Positions 20,499 to 44,316 of a DNA stretch of 64,000 bases are shown in pieces. The notes under the pieces are model-generated. The model worked only from the letters and a program-made list of their open reading frames with translations. It did no database searches and was not told the origin of the DNA. The translations under genes were made by a program, and so were the position numbers. Within the stretch, counting starts at the first letter, position 1. The number at the start of each line of letters is the position of its first letter. The stretch is from an uncultured Bacteroidales bacterium (lineage in GTDB: Bacteria > Bacteroidota > Bacteroidia > Bacteroidales > FEN-979), in assembly GCA_903925275.1 (NCBI GenBank), contig CAIYES010000233.1:1547-65546 (forward strand), read 5' to 3'.

Positions 20499-22550
20499 AT
20501 GAGCGACAAACCTGTTTATAAACGGTATACCGTTACATCCGCCCTGCCCTACGCCAACGGGCCAATCCATATCGGTCATCTTGCCGGTGTTTATATCCCT
20601 GCCGACATATATGTCCGTTTCCTTCGGATGAACGACGAGGATGTCATCTTTATCGGTGGTTCCGACGAGCACGGCGTGCCCATCACCATCAAGGCACTGC
20701 AGCAAGGAGTTACCCCCCAGGATATTGTGGACAGATATCATGGCATCATCAAAAAATCATTCGCCGATTTTGGAATTTCCTTTGACATTTATTCCCGTAC
20801 CTCCAATAAAACCCATCATGAGACAGCTTCTGCATTCTTTCGCAAGTTGTATGATGCAGGAAAATTCATCGAAAAGGTTTCGGAACAATATTTCGACGAA
20901 GCCACGGGCCAATTCCTCGCCGACCGTTACATTACCGGAACATGCCCCTTCTGCGGTTTTGACAACGCCTACGGCGACCAATGCGAAAAGTGCGGCACCT
21001 CGCTTAATGCAACTGACCTGATTGAACCAAAATCAGTACTCAGTGGCAATAAACCGGTTTTGCGTGAAACACGACACTGGTTTCTCCCGCTTGATCAATA
21101 TGAACCCTGGTTGCGTGAATGGATCCTCGAAGGTCACAAAGATGACTGGAAAACCAATGTTTACGGGCAATGTAAATCATGGATCGATCAGGGACTTCAG
21201 CCGCGCGCCGTTACCCGCGACCTCGACTGGGGTGTGAAAGTTCCCGTGGAAGGTGCCGAAGGAAAAGTGTTGTATGTTTGGTTTGATGCACCCATCGGAT
21301 ATATTTCGGCAACCAAAGAACTGACTCCGGAATGGGAAAAATACTGGAAGGATCCGGAAACCAAGCTCGTTCATTTTATTGGCAAAGACAACATCGTTTT
21401 TCACTGCATCATCTTTCCGGCGATGCTGAAAGCCGAAGGTACCTATATACTTCCTGATAATGTTCCTGCCAATGAGTTCCTGAATCTTGAAGGTGACAAA
21501 ATATCCACCTCCCGGAACTGGGCAGTATGGTTGCATGAATACCTGGAGGCATTTCCGGGTAAACAGGATGTTCTAAGATATGTACTCACATCTGCCGCCC
21601 CCGAAACCAAGGATAACGACTTCACCTGGAAAGATTTTCAAACAAGGAACAACAGTGAACTTGTTGCAATTCTCGGAAATTTTGTGAACCGTACCATTGT
21701 TTTAACACACAAATATTTCGAAGGAAAAGTTCCTGAAACTTCTGCATTCACCGACTATGATAAAACGGCGTTGGAAGAGATGAGGCAATTTCCCGGCCGC
21801 ATTGCCGGTAGCATCCGGAACTACCGTTTCCGTGAAGCATTGGCAGAACTGATGAACCTGGCCCGTCTGGGGAACAAGTACCTCACCGACAATGAGCCTT
21901 GGAAGGTTTTCCCCACCGACCCTGTCAGGGTTGGAACAGTTTTAAACATCTCCTTGCAGATCTGTGCCCAGCTCTCGATCGTTGCCGAGCCTTTTCTCCC
22001 ATTTTCGGCTGCAAAGATCAGGCAGATTCTCAACCTGCCATCCTACAAATGGGGGGAGGCCATGTTGCTCAACTGGCTTTCAGCAGGTCACCGGTTAAAC
22101 CAGCCTGAACTACTCTTTGAGAAAATCGATGATGGCGCCATTGAAGCCCAGGTACAAAAGCTGTTGAGTACCCGCGAAGCCAATGAAGCCTTGCAAGCCA
22201 AAGCGCCCGTGAAGCCCGGCAAGGAGGCGATCGTATTCGAGGACTTCTCTAAAATGGATATTCGTGTGGGAACCATCATGGAGGCAGAGAAGGTAGCTAA
22301 AACCGATAAGTTGCTGAAATTGAAAATTGACACCGGTCTCGATCAGCGCATCGTGGTTTCCGGAATCGCAAAGTTTTTTAGTCCCGAAGAAATCGTTGGA
22401 AAACGCGTTTGCATCCTGGTAAATCTTGCCCCCCGCAAACTCAAAGGTATCGAATCGCAGGGTATGATCCTTATGGCCGAAAACCCTGATGGAACACTGT
22501 TTTTTGTAACCCCCGGTGAAGGATCCATCAATGGGGCGGATGTTAAATAG
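20499..22550 (+). CDS. metG: Methionine--tRNA ligase with C-terminal tRNA-binding (EMAP-like) domain
   Basis: [14 protein letters not shown] (HIGH motif), zinc knuckle CPFCG...CEKCG, KISTSRN (KMSKS variant), and a C-terminal MDIRVGTI...[12 protein letters not shown] domain. Confidence 0.97.
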
Positions 22551-22553
22551 TTT

Positions 22554-22594
22554 CCAAACCTTCCAGGTTTTAAAAACCCGGAAGATTTGGTTTT
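22554..22594 (+). terminator. Candidate intrinsic terminator of metG
   Basis: CCAAACCTTCCAGG / CCCGGAAGATTTGG forms a 14-bp stem with 2 mismatches, followed by TTTT. Confidence 0.5.
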
Positions 22595-22623
22595 AAAAAA
22601 TAGTTTAATTTTGCGCCACTCCC

Positions 22624-22695
22624 GGCCCCGTAGTTCAATGGATAGAACGGAAGTTTCCTAAACTTTAAATGCAGGTTCGATTCCTGCCGGGGCTA
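22624..22695 (+). tRNA. tRNA-Arg: tRNA-Arg (anticodon CCT)
   Basis: Manual cloverleaf: acceptor GGCCCCG/CGGGGCT, D arm GTTC-AATGGATA-GAAC, anticodon arm GAAGT-TTCCTAA-ACTTT, T arm GCAGG-TTCGATT-CCTGC, discriminator A. No encoded CCA. Confidence 0.9.
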
Positions 22696-22711
22696 CCTGA
22701 TCATCATACAG

Positions 22712-22746
22712 AAGGCTGATAATCAACAAGATGTCAGCCTTTTTTC
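22712..22746 (+). terminator. Candidate intrinsic terminator after the tRNA
   Basis: AAGGCTGA...TCAGCCTT stem followed by a T-run. Confidence 0.55.
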
Positions 22747-22778
22747 TTGTTGGGTACAACATAGGTACAACTAATTAC

Positions 22779-23139
22779 GGATCAAGAGGAAAATCTGGGG
22801 GATTACATTTGAAATTGAAATCTACTTGGTGAAATGAAACTGAAAAATCACTGCAATCTCAGAACCCCATAGGGGTGATATCTTTGTAGCAGGAGAAAAA
22901 TGAACCATTTCCAGAGCCCCATCGGGGCGACATAGTTGTTGAATCTGTAGAAGCTTAGCTATTGAGTTTATCAAACAGCAGGAAGAATAACCTATTTCGC
23001 AGCTACGCTGCTTTGTTATTCACGACCTGTTATTAGTACTACAAAGATTAGGCAGCTATGCTGCCAATTGGGGAGCAAGGGCAAAACCTCCGGATTTTTC
23101 GCTTGAACCTACCTTCCCCCCAGATTTATCTCTTGATCC
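22779..23139 (+). mobile_element. 361-bp non-autonomous TIR element (MITE-like), copy 1, with 8-bp target-site duplication
   Basis: Ends are GGATCAAGAGGAAAATCTGGGGG... and ...CCCCCCAGATTTATCTCTTGATCC (imperfect inverted repeat). It is flanked by CTAATTAC at 22771-22778 and 23140-23147. No ORF. A second copy lies at 43819. Confidence 0.8.
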
Positions 23140-23373
23140 CTAATTACAACTATCTGAATATTAGTTTATTACAAATAAGGATTTTCGGATAAACTACGTA
23201 ATATATTGATATAATGCATGTTGGTCATTTTATGCTTGAATTCCTAATCCCAGGCATTATTTATTAACGGGCTGTTCATAACTGACCTGCTCTGACAATA
23301 ACAGTTTCTCCAAGCATTTAGTTTCGCAGGGAATTCCCTACTTTTACTGTTGATTTACTAACCAACTAAGCGA

Positions 23374-24972
23374 ATGCCTACACTCAACTGGATCGGCAAA
23401 GACAAAGTCATCAACCACCATCAGGATGTACCCTTCCGTATACTCGACCATCAGTACGGTTTTACACCGGATGGCAAACAAGAAGCACCTGTTAACAGCG
23501 GTAATCTCATCATCCACGGTGATAATCTCGAAGCGCTTAAAGCCCTGTTGCCTCAGTACGAAGCGAAGGTTAAGTGCATCTATATTGACCCCCCTTATAA
23601 CACAGGTAATGAGGGTTGGGCATATAACGATAACGTTAACGATCCAAAGATTAAAAAGTGGTTGCACAAGGTTGTAGGCAAGGAGGGTGAGGACCTGAGC
23701 AGACATGATAAGTGGTTGTGCATGATGTATCCGAGAATGGTGCTTCTGCACAAGCTGCTTAGTCCTGATGGTGCAATGTTCATCTCAATAGACGATAATG
23801 AACAGCCAAACTTACGCTTATTGCTTGATGAACTATTTGGTGGTAAGAACTTCATTGCTAACGTTATATGGCAGAAGGTGTATTCTCCTAAGAACTCTGC
23901 GAAATACTTTTCTGAGGATCATGACTATATCATGGTTTACTCTAAAGACTTCACAAAGTGGGTGCCTAACATGATTCCACGTTCTGCAATACAAGTAAGC
24001 CGATATAAGAACCCAGATCATGATTCAAGAGGGCCTTGGAAACCTGGTGATCTGTCTGCAAGAAACTACTATGGAGATGGTACATACTCTATAACAACAC
24101 CTTCAGGGAGAACTATTGACGCACCTCCAAAAGGTATGTATTGGCGTGTCTCCTTTAAAAAGTTTCAAGAGATGGATGCTGATGGGCGAATTTGGTGGGG
24201 TGCAGAAGGAAATAATGTTCCTGCCATTAAAAGGTTCTTATCGGAGGTCCAAGATGGTGTGGTGCCTCAAACATTGTGGCGCTATGAGGAGGTTGGGCAT
24301 ACGCAGGATGCCAAAAAGGAGTTGCTTAAGATACTTGATTTCGACTCCTCAGCAGATGTCTTTATCACACCTAAGCCATCATCCTTGGTTGATCGAATCC
24401 TTCAGATAGGATCAAGCAAAGATTCAATCGTTCTTGATTCATTCGCCGGCTCAGGTACAACAGCTCATGCGGTCCTGAAACTAAACAAGAAGGACAAGGG
24501 TAATCGCAAATGTATCCTCGTAGAGATGGAAGACTACGCAGAAACCATCACCGCAGAACGCGTCAAGCGCGTCATCAATGGATACGCTGACGTTGAAGGA
24601 ACCGGTGGCAGCTTTGATTACTACGAGTTAGGGCCTCCGTTGTTTGATGAGAACGGCAACCTGAATGATCAGGTACCATTGAACAGGATCAGAGAGTATG
24701 TATGGTACTCCGAAACCCGGTCAGCATTTAATCCGTTGACGGAGGATCAGCTTCGCAATCCTTACTTCCTGGGGATCAAGGAGGATACCGGGTATTATTT
24801 CTACTACGAACTTCAGCAGGTAACCACCCTCGATTACGATTTTCTTGGTACCATCTGCCTCAAAGCAGAACAGTATGTAATCTATGCCGACAACTGCCTG
24901 CTGTCAAAGACCTTCCTGCAAAACAACAACATCATATTCAAGAAGATACCCCGAGACATCTCACGCTTATGA
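23374..24972 (+). CDS. mod: Type III restriction-modification methyltransferase (Mod), beta-class amino-MTase
   Basis: IYIDPPYNTG (motif IV) precedes DSFAGSGTTAHAV (motif I). Size and a downstream Res-type helicase-nuclease support the call. Confidence 0.85.
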   Translation: MPTLNWIGKDKVINHHQDVPFRILDHQYGFTPDGKQEAPVNSGNLIIHGDNLEALKALLPQYEAKVKCIYIDPPYNTGNEGWAYNDNVNDPKIKKWLHKVVGKEGEDLSRHDKWLCMMYPRMVLLHKLLSPDGAMFISIDDNEQPNLRLLLDELFGGKNFIANVIWQKVYSPKNSAKYFSEDHDYIMVYSKDFTKWVPNMIPRSAIQVSRYKNPDHDSRGPWKPGDLSARNYYGDGTYSITTPSGRTIDAPPKGMYWRVSFKKFQEMDADGRIWWGAEGNNVPAIKRFLSEVQDGVVPQTLWRYEEVGHTQDAKKELLKILDFDSSADVFITPKPSSLVDRILQIGSSKDSIVLDSFAGSGTTAHAVLKLNKKDKGNRKCILVEMEDYAETITAERVKRVINGYADVEGTGGSFDYYELGPPLFDENGNLNDQVPLNRIREYVWYSETRSAFNPLTEDQLRNPYFLGIKEDTGYYFYYELQQVTTLDYDFLGTICLKAEQYVIYADNCLLSKTFLQNNNIIFKKIPRDISRL

Positions 24973-25094
24973 AACCAAATGGAAAATACACTGTGGCAAT
25001 AAACGCATTATATGGGAATTGAACTATTCAAAATTGTCGAATGGATCAAGGTTTAATCATTTTTTTCTATCTTGCATAAACAAAAATAACCGAT

Positions 25095-25307
25095 ATGAAA
25101 ACCGATGAATTAATACTCGAAATAAAAAAACTGCCATTGAATGAAAAGCTTAAGATTATTGAAACTACAGCTCATTCGGTCAGGCTTGACGGAGAAAGAA
25201 AACAAAGGGCTGCCGCTGCAAAATCCCGTGCCGGGAATTATGCAACAGATCAGGAATTAACAGCGTTTACCACTTTAGACGGAGCGGCCTTTTATGAAAC
25301 AAGGTGA
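25095..25307 (+). CDS. Putative antitoxin of the downstream MazF-like toxin
   Basis: 70-aa ORF overlapping the toxin gene by 14 nt. The N-terminal helix (ELILEIKKLPLNEKLKIIE) resembles small addiction-module antitoxins; the family is not firmly recognised. Confidence 0.55.
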   Translation: MKTDELILEIKKLPLNEKLKIIETTAHSVRLDGERKQRAAAAKSRAGNYATDQELTAFTTLDGAAFYETR

Positions 25308-25653
25308 AATATGGCTTATCAGTCTTGATCCGGTGGTAGGCGCAGAGATCAACAAGACAAGAACCGCAATTATTATCAATGATGATGCGTTGGGAATTCT
25401 TCCACTGAAGATAATCATCCCGGTTACAGAATGGAAAACCAGGTATGTCAATGCTCCCTGGTTTGTAAAAATCGACTCTTCTGAAAATACCGGATTAACC
25501 AAAGATTCTGCTGCTGATTGTTTTCAAATCCGCTCGGCATTTGATTCACGGCTGATAAAAAAACTGGGAAAAGTAGACCAGGCGTCATTAGAAAAAATTC
25601 AGTATGCATTATCGAAAGTCCTGTCAATACATTTATTCGAAAAATTCGAATAG
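25294..25653 (+). CDS. mazF: PemK/MazF-family type II toxin (endoribonuclease fold)
   Basis: MKQGEIWLISLDPVVGAEINKTRTAIIINDD...PLKIIIPVT...ADCFQIRS matches the PemK/MazF pattern. Confidence 0.8.
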   Translation: MKQGEIWLISLDPVVGAEINKTRTAIIINDDALGILPLKIIIPVTEWKTRYVNAPWFVKIDSSENTGLTKDSAADCFQIRSAFDSRLIKKLGKVDQASLEKIQYALSKVLSIHLFEKFE

Positions 25654-25712
25654 CTCCCATGATCAATTCTTCGTAAAAGAAATCAAGCGCAAATCCCGGG
25701 CACCCGTAAACA

Positions 25713-28340
25713 ATGGAACTCAAACCCTACCAGACCAAAGTCATCAAAGACCTTGAAAGCTATCTTGGCTACGTTCAACAGTACAAGCTTACCGACGTAG
25801 CCTTTAAGCGCTTTTGGGAAGATCAGGTCGGTCCTTACAACCCGATCACCGGTGAAGGTATGTGACCGTATCAGAACAATGTTCCAAATGCGGCGCATGT
25901 TTGTATTAAGGTACCGACAGCAGGTGGTAAGACCTTCATCGCCTGTAACGCATTGAAGACGATCTTTAACGCATTTGATGCCAGCCATGCAAAAGCAGTG
26001 GTGTGGTTAGTACCCTGGAGCAACCTGTTAGAACAAACGGTTCGGAACCTGAGCAACCCTGATCATCCTTACCGGCAGAAGCTGAACACACTATTTAACC
26101 ATCGTGTGGCCGTTTATGAGAAGAAGGACCTGTTACAGGGATCAAACTTTAGTCCATCAGTGGTTAGTGAACAATTGAGCATCTTCGTGATGAGCTTTGG
26201 CTCGATCAGAGCGACGCGCAAGGAAGACCGTAAGATATATGAGCAAAACGGTCAACTGTCATCGTTTGTGCCCACTTATAATGATAGCTCCGTGGTACTG
26301 GCCAACACCGATGAGTCGGCGCTGATCAATGTAATCCGGAACCTGAACCCGATACTGGTCGTTGACGAAAGTCACAATGCTGAAACAGACCTCAGCGTGG
26401 AGATGCTGAAAGCGCTCAATCCATGCTTCATTCTTGATCTTACAGCCACTCCTAAAGACAACAGCAACATTGTCAGCATGGTTCCGGCTATTGAGTTGAA
26501 AAAACACAGCATGGTAAAGCTGCCTGTGATCGTTTATAACCATAAAGATAAACATGATGTTATCAGTAGCGCTCTTCACTTGCAGCGGAAACTGGAAGCA
26601 TCAGCACTTGCAGAAGAGAAGGTCACAGGCCGCTACATCCGCCCAATCGTCCTGTTTCAGGCACAATCAGCGACCCATGAAGACAACACGACCTTTGAGA
26701 AGCTAAAAGCCGAACTGCTAAAGCTTGGCATCAAGGAAGAGCAGATCAAAATTAAAACGGCAAACAAGAACGAACTTACCGGCATTGATCTGTCGTCAAA
26801 AGACTGTCAGGTAAGGTACATCATCACGATTAATGCACTGAAAGAAGGCTGGGACTGTCCGTTCGCATATATCCTGGCTTCACTTGCTGACAAGTCATCA
26901 GCAGTTGACGTTGAACAGATTCTTGGACGTGTGCTAAGACAGCCCTACGTTATCCGACATGCCGATATATTACTGAATGTTTCGTATGTACTCACGTCAT
27001 CCGCAAAGTTCAATGATACCTTGCAGAACATCGTCAAGAGCTTGTTGAATTCCGGATTTAGCGATAAAGACTACCGGCAGAAGGATGATATGCCCGAAGC
27101 CGACAAACAGCAGGTCACAGCAAAGACACTCGATAATTTCCTGTTTCCGGAAGACAAGCCGGAGGATGAAGGTATTGATGCCGGGAAGGTCAACTATAGT
27201 CCTGATGGTACAGATGCACCGGCAGCAACTACGGTTATCAACACCATCGCCGGTCTTGCCGAACAACAGAACCGTGAACTGGAAGAGCAGATCAACAAAC
27301 AACCTGATGTTATTGACGACAACTATTTTGCAGAGATGGGAACTAAAGTAAAGCGTTATCGAATCCGTGAAGCCTTGTTGGATCAAGTCAAGAGTATCAC
27401 CATTCCACGGTTCTACATTGATGTACCACACAGCGATCTCTTTGAAACCAGTTCAGGACTTGTCCCATTAGATGACACCATTCTGCTTACTGGATTCGCC
27501 CTGGAGAAGTGCGACAAGAATATCGCCTTTGATGATGTCTCGTCTGAACTTTACAAGGTTGACTTACAGGAAACACGGAAGAATGAGTACTCGCCCTCGT
27601 TTACCAAGATCGAAGACCGGATGCTTAAAGAGCCGTTAGTCGATTACATTCTCGCCAAACCAAAGGAGAGCCAGCTCAAAGACCTCGCTGATATAGTGAT
27701 CAAGCTCATAGGAGACATGTACCCAATTCCTGACAGCTCCATAAAACGCTATGTTGAATCAGTTTTTAACGACTTCACGCAAGAGCAGATCGCTGATTTT
27801 CTCGCTCGTAAATACACTTACGTCGACAAGATCAAACATAAGATCAAGGTACTTGCAGATGCATACGCCGAAGAACAATTCAATAAGTACATTAAGGTGG
27901 GGAAGATCAAGGTTCAGCAAGTGTGGAAGTTTCCTGAATCAATCAGTCCTGGCAACCTCGGCCCATCTATCGGACAATCGCTATATGAGCGTGAAGGGTC
28001 CATGAATGGCTTTGAAGAGCGTGTGATACTTGAATTGTCAAGCCTCTCTAACATAAACTTCTGGCACCGGAATATTGAGCGCAGGGGCTTTGCTATCAAC
28101 GGTTTTAAGTCAAACCATTATCCTGACTTCATTCTCTATACAAAGACCGGTAACGTAATTCTACTGGAAACAAAAGGTGATTATCTGGATGGAACTGACA
28201 GTTCTGCTAAGTGTCGTCTCGGGAACCAGTGGCAGCAGCTCTCCGGTTCAGGATTCAGTTACTTTATGGTGTTTGATGCCAAACCCATTACCGATTCTTA
28301 TACGATCACGCAGGCAAAGGATATGATCAGGATGCTTTAA
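25713..28340 (+). pseudogene. res: Type III restriction enzyme Res subunit (SF2 helicase + PD-(D/E)xK nuclease) interrupted by an in-frame TGA at 25863-25865
   Basis: The same frame gives MELKPYQ...GEGM-stop-PYQNNVPNAAHVCIKVPTAGGKTF (Walker A), then VVDESHN (motif II) and a C-terminal YPDFILY...LLETKG nuclease motif. The track ORF starts at TTG 25953, downstream of motif I. Confidence 0.75.
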
Positions 28341-43766: not shown

Positions 43767-43818
43767 GTCAATATACTTTTAAGCAAGAAATTCTGCTTAA
43801 GTAAGGTCTGCTTAAAAA

Positions 43819-44147
43819 GGATCAAGAGGAAAATCTGGAGGATTACGTTTGAAATTGAAATCGACCTGGTGAAAAAGAATCTGGAAAAATCACTGCAATC
43901 TTAGAACCCCATCGGGGTGATATCTTTGTAGCAAGAGAAAAGCGGACCATTTCAAGAGCCCCATCGGGGCGACATGGTTATTGAACCTGTCAAAGAATAG
44001 CTGTTGAATTTATTTAACATTAGGAAGAATAATCTATTTCGCAGCTACGCTGCTTAGTTATTCACGCCCTGTTATTACTACAAAGATTAGGCAGTTACGC
44101 TGCCAATTGAAAGCAAGTGGAAAACCCCCGGAAATTCTTCTTGATCC
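43819..44147 (+). mobile_element. 329-bp non-autonomous TIR element (MITE-like), copy 2, with its own 8-bp target-site duplication
   Basis: Collinear with copy 1 in the same orientation. It is flanked by CTTAAAAA at 43811-43818 and 44148-44155. The right end is shorter than in copy 1. Confidence 0.8.
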
Positions 44148-44316
44148 CTTAAAAACTCCTTGCTAACTGAACGAAAGATAACGATACCTGAAAATCTGTG
44201 TTTGAAACACCAGAAATCCGTTATGAGTTGAAGCAAAAAGGCATCACCAGCGATTGAGGAGAGATTGTCAGGTTTATGATTGTTAAAAAAGGTTCACCCG
44301 TCTCTTAATCGATTTA

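Follow-up and report, generated by a model that had tools for sequence, protein, structure and literature searches.

A MITE family of an uncultured Bacteroidales bacterium with ISAon1-type ends and a hairpin core resembling the flanks of Y1 transposase genes

Introduction

ISL3-type elements make 8-bp target duplications, and mobile insertion cassettes are arrangements in which IS ends are set around a passenger gene. By mechanism, the nearest published analogue of the repeat described here lies in the ISL3 family, with its ISAon1 group (NF049916/NF049917), and in MITEs such as the 187-nt MITE of Microcystis aeruginosa PCC 7806; for that MITE and for the Microcystis ISL3 elements themselves, 8-bp duplications are stated (PMC11448079). 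Like the Microcystis MITE, the element studied here has TIRs in common with a full-length IS carrying a gene for a DDE_Tnp_ISL3 transposase, is associated with 8-bp duplications, is non-coding, and exists in tens of copies that are mostly intergenic (PMC11448079). The two differ in end sequence (GGATCAAGAGG... here and GGCTCTTCG... in Microcystis) and in the partner transposase, which here is split into two ORFs in the manner of the ISAon1 type, unlike that of the Microcystis ISL3 elements. They also differ in size, since the element here is larger (330-361 bp, with one subfamily having a doubled right end) than the 187-nt MITE, and in the interior, which is a conserved four-hairpin arrangement here and a simple stem-loop there (PMC11448079). 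Our literature search returned nothing on 'ISAon1', nor on ISL3 MITEs in Bacteroidetes.

Within the same phylum, the MITEs of Porphyromonas gingivalis (BrickBuilt and others) are likewise intergenic and present in tens of copies, and they too have only their ends in common with a resident IS, around an unrelated interior that is structured or repetitive (PMC4596501). Those MITEs have IS5-type ends (GAGACC...), short or unclear duplications, and minisatellite cargo, whereas the element here has ISL3-type ends, 8-bp duplications, and a cargo of hairpins (PMC4596501).

The interior of the element invites a comparison of a different kind, with REP/REPIN sequences and REPtrons (PMC3116915, PMC3733652, PMC6006769). 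As in those systems, short GC hairpins are arranged in inverted orientation with a conserved tail ending in GTAG, and the units flank single-copy Y1 genes in relatives, in one of which (G077) they are repeated 49-fold. Unlike REP/REPIN sequences, however, the units here lie inside a duplication-making, DDE-type MITE, their GTAG stands 8-10 nt off the hairpin rather than adjacent to it, two different hairpins are used per side, and a matching Y1 gene was not found in the genome (PMC3116915, PMC3733652, PMC6006769).

Anatomy of the element

The window, by which we mean the whole 64,000-nt stretch of DNA analysed here, is part of contig C233 of a 5.65-Mb assembly (574 contigs, 94.9% complete). 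A first-pass annotation had described, just after a tRNA-Arg gene, a 361-bp TIR element with an 8-bp duplication, no ORF, a quasi-palindromic interior, and short GC hairpins, and our analysis bore out each part of this description. The features of the locus, together with the second copy in the window, are given below.

22624 to 22697, + strand: tRNA-Arg, anticodon CCT (ARAGORN; Rfam tRNA, 70 bits)
22752 to 22771, + strand: conserved 20-mer GGGTACAACATAGGTACAAC, outside the MITE, sharing base 22771 with the start of the duplication
22771 to 22778, no strand: left copy of the 8-bp target-site duplication, CTAATTAC, perfect
22779 to 23139, + strand: MITE of 361 bp, no ORF, doubled-right-end subfamily (blastn, ORF scan, copy alignment)
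22779 to 22801, + strand: left TIR, GGATCAAGAGGAAAATCTGGGGG, with 2 mismatches to the end of a 1436-bp IS on contig C197
22865 to 22889, + strand: outer left unit, hairpin CCCCATAGGGG followed by TGAT and the box ATCTTTGTAG; terminator-like on the + strand
22916 to 22933, + strand: inner left unit, hairpin GCCCCATCGGGGC followed by GACAT; also flanks a Y1 gene in genome G119
22993 to 23011, + strand: inner right unit, TATTTC followed by hairpin GCAGCTACGCTGC; the identical hairpin lies directly 3' of a Y1 gene in G110:C82
23039 to 23065, + strand: outer right unit, box CTACAAAGAT followed by TA and hairpin GGCAGCTATGCTGCC; terminator-like on the - strand
23087 to 23109, - strand: inner, degenerate right TIR, GGTTCAAGCGAAAAATCCGGAGG; the end used by the ~330-bp base family
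23110 to 23139, - strand: outer right TIR, GGATCAAGAGATAAATCTGGGGGGAAGGTA; the end flanked by the duplication
23140 to 23147, no strand: right copy of the 8-bp target-site duplication, CTAATTAC, perfect
43819 to 44147, + strand: second window copy, 87% identical over its 329 bp, of the base family and so with one right end

The MITE starts 81 bp 3' of tRNA-Arg(CCT). Its left end recurs in inverted form at 23117-23139, over 23 nt and with 2 mismatches, and appears again at 43819; 0 of 100 shuffles of the window gave a 23-mer match of such quality. An ORF scan with a minimum of 60 aa gave nothing that overlaps the 361 bp, and an Rfam search of 22000-24000 at a permissive threshold had the tRNA as its sole match. 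Inside the element, the box ATCTTTGTAG at 22880-22889 forms a perfect pair with CTACAAAGAT at 23039-23048, and four GC hairpins occupy 22865-22875, 22916-22928, 22999-23011, and 23051-23065.

Copies and target duplications

The second copy in the window is flanked by a different 8-mer, CTTAAAAA, at 43811-43818 and 44148-44155, and it was from this pair of copies that the first-pass annotation had proposed a transposed repeat family. The rest of the genome extends the proposal well beyond two copies. With the 361 bp as query, blastn returned 46-49 matches with at least 25 distinct left ends, which lie on different contigs and have different flanks. Many of them coincide exactly with contig ends, which makes the family one of the causes of the breakage of the assembly into 574 contigs. 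A scan of the genome with the end motif gave 95 end-like sites, and when inward-facing ends were paired, about 20 complete elements resulted genome-wide.

Six of these complete elements have perfect 8/8 duplications (CTAATTAC, CTTAAAAA, GATAATAT, ATCGTCCG, CTATTTTG, and GGTATTGA), where the chance of a perfect 8-mer match at a fixed position is 1 in 65,536. Another three have duplications that agree at 7/8 positions, all differing from one another and from the perfect ones, and two agree at 6/8. Because the flanking 8-mers vary between copies, they are target duplications that lie outside the repeat itself, and the suspicion that they might belong to it can be set aside. Roughly half of the complete elements have no clean duplication; some of those without one are nested in or abut other elements. 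All 13 of 13 full-length copies lie outside ORFs of at least 100 aa, as judged by crude ORF calls, with several within tens of bp of ORF ends.

An alignment of 13 copies defines a base family of ~330 bp that has one end per side. In the window copy and in at least eight other right ends (C111, C133, C34, C84, C299, C32, C180, and C270), a 30-bp outer end, GGATCAAGAGATAAATCTGGGGGGAAGGTA, is placed immediately outside a degenerated inner end (GGTTCAAGCG...), and the nine outer right ends have nine different flanks. The duplication of the window copy borders the outer end, which marks the composite form as the transposing form. This same variant end, GATAAATC, adjoins the 3' end of an ISAon1-type orfB in the sister species G014, so the outer end is a genuine IS end. 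On our reading, the original right end of this derived subfamily decayed and the extra IS-type end of 30 bp just outside it took over its role. A copy on contig C190 has a doubled end of another kind.

We compared 40 relatives, of which 24 belong to the same genus. G007 alone among them has a near-full match, a partial copy that is 90% identical over 122 bp at a contig end, and in the other members of the genus the match is confined to the core (element positions 215-294); full-length copies are essentially confined to this genome. The surroundings of the locus are 70-89% identical between species of the genus. In G002:C250, the homologous tRNA-Arg, hairpin, and GGGTACAACATAGGTACAAC are followed by uninterrupted sequence, which is an approximate, cross-species empty site, and in the metagenome contig L156 the homologue of the tRNA-downstream region is uninterrupted beside a different tRNA, again an approximate one. 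The exact empty-site 26-mer had 0 matches in metagenome contigs, and a same-species empty site was not found.

An IS with matching ends in the same genome

No transposase with matching ends is present in the window, as had been observed before, and the full-length IS with such ends that the first-pass annotation had proposed to look for was found elsewhere in the genome. Contig C197 carries, at 144-1579, a 1436-bp IS with perfect 28-bp inverted ends, GGATCAAGAGGAATTTCTGGGGGGAAGC. Its two ORFs, 131 codons and 330 codons long, overlap and lie on the same strand. For the longer one, the matches are Pfam DDE_Tnp_ISL3 (PF01610, 1.5e-52) and NCBIfam ISAon1_downstr (NF049917, 'ISAon1 family transposase', 2.5e-163); the shorter one matches NCBIfam ISAon1_upstream (NF049916, 'ISAon1 family transposase N-terminal region protein', 8e-46) and has a weak match to the ISL3 zinc ribbon. 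Further ISAon1-type elements on C75, C158, and C379 are 55-58% identical at the protein level and have different ends. No target duplication was seen around the IS on C197 (CTTTTTTC versus GATACAAG), which is a single assembled copy; its 2-kb contig may be a collapsed repeat.

The ends of this IS differ from those of the MITEs at 0-2 of 23 positions, with the left end of the window MITE differing at 2 of 23. The likeness stops there: about 24-28 bp at the ends are shared, with no similarity between the interiors and none to the transposase ORFs. The MITE is thus not an internal-deletion derivative of the IS, and we read it as having been moved in trans, since the IS on C197 offers both the same ends and a transposase. 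The inverted ends, the target duplications, the dispersed copies, the IS that combines these ends with an ISL3-type transposase, and the lack of similarity between IS and MITE interiors are the observations behind our main reading, to which we give a probability of roughly 0.9: the 361-bp element is a MITE with ISAon1-family (ISL3-type, DDE) ends on which a transposase acts in trans. By every sequence-level criterion the element is a bacterial MITE. The transposase encoded on C197 would, judging from its ends, be the protein that moves it. Movement would follow the usual DDE cut or copy with staggered-cut repair, by which 8 bp of the target would be duplicated at each insertion.

The four-hairpin core and the flanks of Y1 genes

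The interior of the MITE is organized around a core in which an outer hairpin with ATCTTTGTAG is followed by an inner hairpin with GACAT, ~70 nt of intervening sequence, TATTTC with an inner hairpin, and finally CTACAAAGAT with an outer hairpin. Hairpin, 2-4 nt, and ATCTTTGTAG are thus present on both sides in inverted orientation, with the tag 8-10 nt from the stem, unlike in classical REPs. As a measure of conservation we used the deviation from the majority base across 13 copies, which are related by descent, so that independence, and with it the p-values, is overstated.

Hairpin stems: deviation 1.3% (13 copies)
Boxes: deviation 1.5% (13 copies)
Loops: deviation 10.9% (13 copies)
Rest of the interior: deviation 11.7% (13 copies)
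Terminal repeats: deviation 15.7% (13 copies)

Stems and boxes are therefore conserved about nine times better than loops, spacers, or ends among these 13 kin copies, a large contrast even so. The core also lies inside a different repeat of 402 bp, whose inverted ends are TGCTTATCCCTTTCAGT... (C50:47966-48367 and C500:27006-27409), and it recurs amid unrelated flanks in other species belonging to the genus, where one stem has undergone a compensatory change from GGCAGC/GCTGCC to GGCAAC/GTTGCC. In this genome, box-plus-hairpin units are present only inside MITE shells.

When the pattern of the right box and hairpin was sought in 301 genomes of the order, only two other genomes matched, with G077 having 49 copies. 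At G077:C17 and G110:C82, the single-copy gene for a Y1 (IS200-like) transposase has core units immediately on either side. Upstream, the layout is an outer hairpin with ATCTTTGTAG, ~25 nt, an inner hairpin with GACAT, and then the gene; downstream, the gene is followed by GATGTC with an inner hairpin, ~25 nt, and CTACAAAGAT with an outer hairpin. The MITE core has the order and spacing of these flanks, with starts of outer and inner hairpins 51-52 nt apart on both sides, and the inner hairpin on its right side, GCAGCTACGCTGC, is identical to the one at G110:C82, with ~70 nt in place of the gene. The two halves of the MITE are colinear with the flanks in G110 (z = 7.7 and 9.1 against shuffles) and in G077 (z = 2.9 and 7.9 against shuffles). 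Among 30 Y1 loci that together represent 30 genera of the order, about 20 show this double-hairpin layout, with stems that vary and a box that ends in RTAG, and the Y1 locus of G119 carries a unit of the MITE type, GCCCC...GGGGC with GACAT. The literature that we searched contained no description of a regular double-hairpin, GTAG-tagged layout at the flanks of Bacteroidales Y1 genes.

The Y1 proteins concerned are ~154 aa long and contain the motifs DHVH, WQ, and YILNQ..HHKK. The motifs of Y1 subclass 1.2 have been listed, and that subclass has been described as lacking REP-like flanks (PMC6006769); by our own reading of the motifs, the proteins here would fit subclass 1.2 (PMC6006769). In the present genome (94.9% complete) there is no Y1 gene of the matching type. 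Its sole Y1 gene, on C477, encodes a protein 35-37% identical and is flanked by GCCCTGAAAGGGC-type hairpins and 50-bp tandem arrays rather than by core units, and the idea that the core represents the REPs of this gene was dropped on that account. A search of the middle of the MITE for a remnant of Y1 coding sequence gave nothing significant. At some Y1 loci the hairpins on the two sides are reverse complements of each other, which those of the MITE are not. We also considered whether ATCTTTGTAG might be a Bacteroidetes -7 promoter element (TAnnTTTG) and set this aside because, at Y1 loci, the terminal RTAG is kept but TTTG is not, and a mirrored box follows the gene on its downstream side.

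Since the order, spacing, and sequence of Y1 gene flanks recur in the core, we read the core as a gene-less Y1-gene cassette, and a REP/REPIN-like cassette of this kind captured between ISAon1 ends is the probable identity of the cargo. The main competing account of the core, which we consider unlikely though worth weighing, is that it has nothing to do with Y1 cassettes and consists of paired bidirectional intrinsic terminators or another structured DNA or RNA module, the likeness being a convergence of GC hairpins. Three of the hairpins do match the terminator pattern of a hairpin with a T-rich tail, facing inward from both sides, the genome is without a matching Y1 gene, and the left half of the MITE aligns weakly with the G077 flank (z = 2.9). 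Convergence would, however, have to reproduce an identical 10-nt box, an identical inner hairpin GCAGCTACGCTGC, the GACAT/GATGTC tails, and the outer-to-inner spacings of 51-52 nt that both sides have in common, and a role in termination is in any case compatible with an origin from Y1 flanks.

The resemblance to Y1 flanks can also be pressed in the opposite direction, by supposing that the whole repeat is of the REPIN/REP type and is moved by a Y1 (RAYT-like) transposase, with the outer TIRs and the 8-bp repeats being incidental. The interior is made of hairpin-plus-GTAG-type units like those beside Y1 genes, and the genome does hold one Y1 gene. We nevertheless regard this account as very improbable. 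Transposition of the HUH/Y1 type is not known to make a target duplication, yet six different perfect 8-bp duplications stand exactly outside the TIRs, and an ISL3-type IS of this genome has the same ends. The resident Y1 gene, moreover, has different flanking repeats, and the core is also found within a different shell with other ends.

Possible function of the core

Stems and boxes are kept so much better than the rest that the core is probably functional; judging from this pattern, it probably does something. A scan with the terminator consensus (GC stem with a T-rich tail, a consensus match only) found 3 terminator-like sites in the element, versus 0.5 +/- 0.7 in shuffles. Two of the sites, at the left outer and the right inner hairpin, are on the + strand, and the third, at the right outer hairpin, is on the - strand. 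With such hairpins on both strands, the element could stop transcription that enters from either side. Our best guess is that the core either stops transcription in this way or serves as a putative binding site for a Y1 protein.

Both strands fold far better than shuffles (z = -7.0 and -5.2), as they should because the DNA is an inverted repeat, and no RNA is identified thereby. That the family could be one of small structured RNA genes, with the repeats being paralogous genes rather than transposed DNA, accords with this folding and with conserved stems and variable loops and is highly improbable, given no Rfam family besides the tRNA, TIRs with variable 8-bp duplications as a signature of transposition, and strands that fold about equally, as inverted-repeat DNA should.

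A broader interpretation, which we offer tentatively and hold to be possible rather than likely, combines these strands of evidence. The core could be a functional REPIN-like unit belonging to a Y1 (IS200-like, subclass 1.2-type) system of Bacteroidota. Unrelated MITE shells of the DDE type would then have captured it on at least two occasions, one shell with ISAon1 ends and the other with TGCTTATCCCTTTCAGT ends (C50/C500), and its stems could be under selection for a role at the level of the host, such as two-way insulation of transcription. Were this the case, the repeat would be a chimeric element on which two unrelated classes of transposase can act.

Other cargoes and the genomic setting

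The same ends enclose other material in this genome. At C129:7999-8597, a 599-bp cassette with these ends contains a gene for a PF05635 four-helix-bundle protein ('23S rRNA intervening sequence protein') and arms of TTTCAGA heptads, and a gene-less family of 206-280 bp, also with these ends, is built from the TTTCAGA heptad arms of the C129 cassette. The 599-bp cassette is comparable to mobile insertion cassettes, while the element under study carries no gene. We considered the MITE interior as a decayed form of the PF05635 cassette and rejected this, as the two share their ends only; ATCTTTGTAG boxes were present at none of 11 PF05635 genes. A gene-bearing cassette and gene-less derivatives within the same ends indicate that such ends repeatedly pick up small cassettes. 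In a single genome, ISAon1-type ends enclose a transposase, a four-helix-bundle cassette with its gene-less remnants, and what we read as a gene-less Y1-transposase cassette, which suggests that these ends routinely pick up other small selfish cassettes.

As an ISL3-type MITE, the element is ordinary mobile DNA, and the family marks recent transposase activity; only its probable cargo, a gene-less Y1 cassette, and the strong conservation of that cargo go beyond the ordinary. The window copy has a tRNA gene on one side and a restriction-modification operon on the other, and in this position read-through transcription could be altered by its inward-facing hairpins. The 20-mer GGGTACAACATAGGTACAAC upstream of the insertion is single-copy in this genome, has an exact match in at least 120 metagenome contigs, and seems to mark the edge of the restriction-modification segment beside the tRNA.

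A conserved 20-mer and the restriction-modification genes beside the tRNA gene

Just upstream of the MITE, the 20-mer GGGTACAACATAGGTACAAC (window 22752-22771) ends where the element's left target duplication begins, apparently marking the edge of a mobile segment adjoining tRNA genes. Once the MITE is taken out, the region of the 20-mer forms three KTACAAC repeats at 11-bp spacing. The 20-mer has one copy in its own genome (G000); exact matches are found on at least 120 metagenome contigs of many different environments, usually with a terminator-like hairpin directly before them. In one of these contigs (L156), the same hairpin and 20-mer lie downstream of another tRNA than at the window locus, with a homologue of the window's downstream DNA methylase gene 1.6 kb beyond them. 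The genes 3' of the MITE are the following:

window 23374-28340, type III restriction-modification pair (N6_N4 DNA methylase and ResIII helicase-nuclease)

In the relatives G045 and G019, the tRNA and methylase genes lie more than 1 kb apart, with other DNA between them. Incomplete copies of the 3' end of the tRNA together with its downstream hairpin recur at other places in several members of the genus.

Elements sharing the ends or the core of the MITE

Ends of the ISAon1 type carried by the 361-bp MITE recur in G000 on a gene-bearing cassette and on a second MITE family of 206-280 bp, while a four-hairpin core homologous to that of the MITE recurs in a 402-bp repeat with inverted ends (TGCTTATCCCTTTCAGT / TGCTTGTCCCTTTCGGT) unlike those of the MITE:

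C129:7999-8597, 599-bp cassette, outside the window
C147:8931-9194, second MITE family
C473:2696-2930, second MITE family
C510:3057-3336, second MITE family
C104:58801-59051, second MITE family
C513:1506-1711, second MITE family
C204:14517-14794, second MITE family
C50:47966-48367, 402-bp repeat
C500:27006-27409, 402-bp repeat, second copy

The cassette gene encodes a four-helix-bundle 23S rRNA intervening-sequence protein (PF05635) between arms of TTTCAGA heptad repeats; a clean target duplication is absent at the cassette's flanks. The interior of the second MITE family consists only of these TTTCAGA/TCTGAAA arms, without the gene, and two of its members are flanked by perfect 8-bp duplications (ATCGTCCG and GATAATAT). 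Of the two copies of the 402-bp repeat, just one shows a possible 9-bp duplication (TTATTTCTT).

The MITE copy at C190:241-613 has a doubled right end unlike that of the window copy, in which a second end, truncated to 20 bp, comes immediately after the inner end; end-doubling therefore occurred more than once. On its left side, the end of another element abuts, 20 bp away.

The transposase of the 1436-bp ISAon1-family element on C197, which shares the MITE ends, is encoded by two overlapping ORFs split at the T/A run CTTTTTTAAAAGG (C197:1135-1170, minus strand). Such a split seems typical of the ISAon1 family, because NCBIfam models its upstream and downstream proteins separately, and it may reflect programmed frameshifting.

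Y1 transposase loci

A regular double-hairpin layout is common to about 20 of 30 Y1 loci, drawn from 30 Bacteroidales genera. Its outer unit, a hairpin and then an RTAG-terminated box, lies ~80 nt 5' of the start codon and its inner unit, a hairpin followed by GAMAY, ~30 nt 5' of it; the layout is mirrored on the 3' side, where inner and outer units lie ~20 and 70 nt past the stop. A published survey (PMC6006769) lists the subclass matching these Bacteroidales genes as one that lacks REP-like flanks. G000 itself has a single Y1 gene:

C477:26700-28100, locus of the sole Y1 (IS200-like) transposase gene (154 aa)

This locus is REPtron-like, with GCCCTGAAAGGGC-type hairpins flanking the gene and tandem arrays of ~25-50-bp repeat units on either side.
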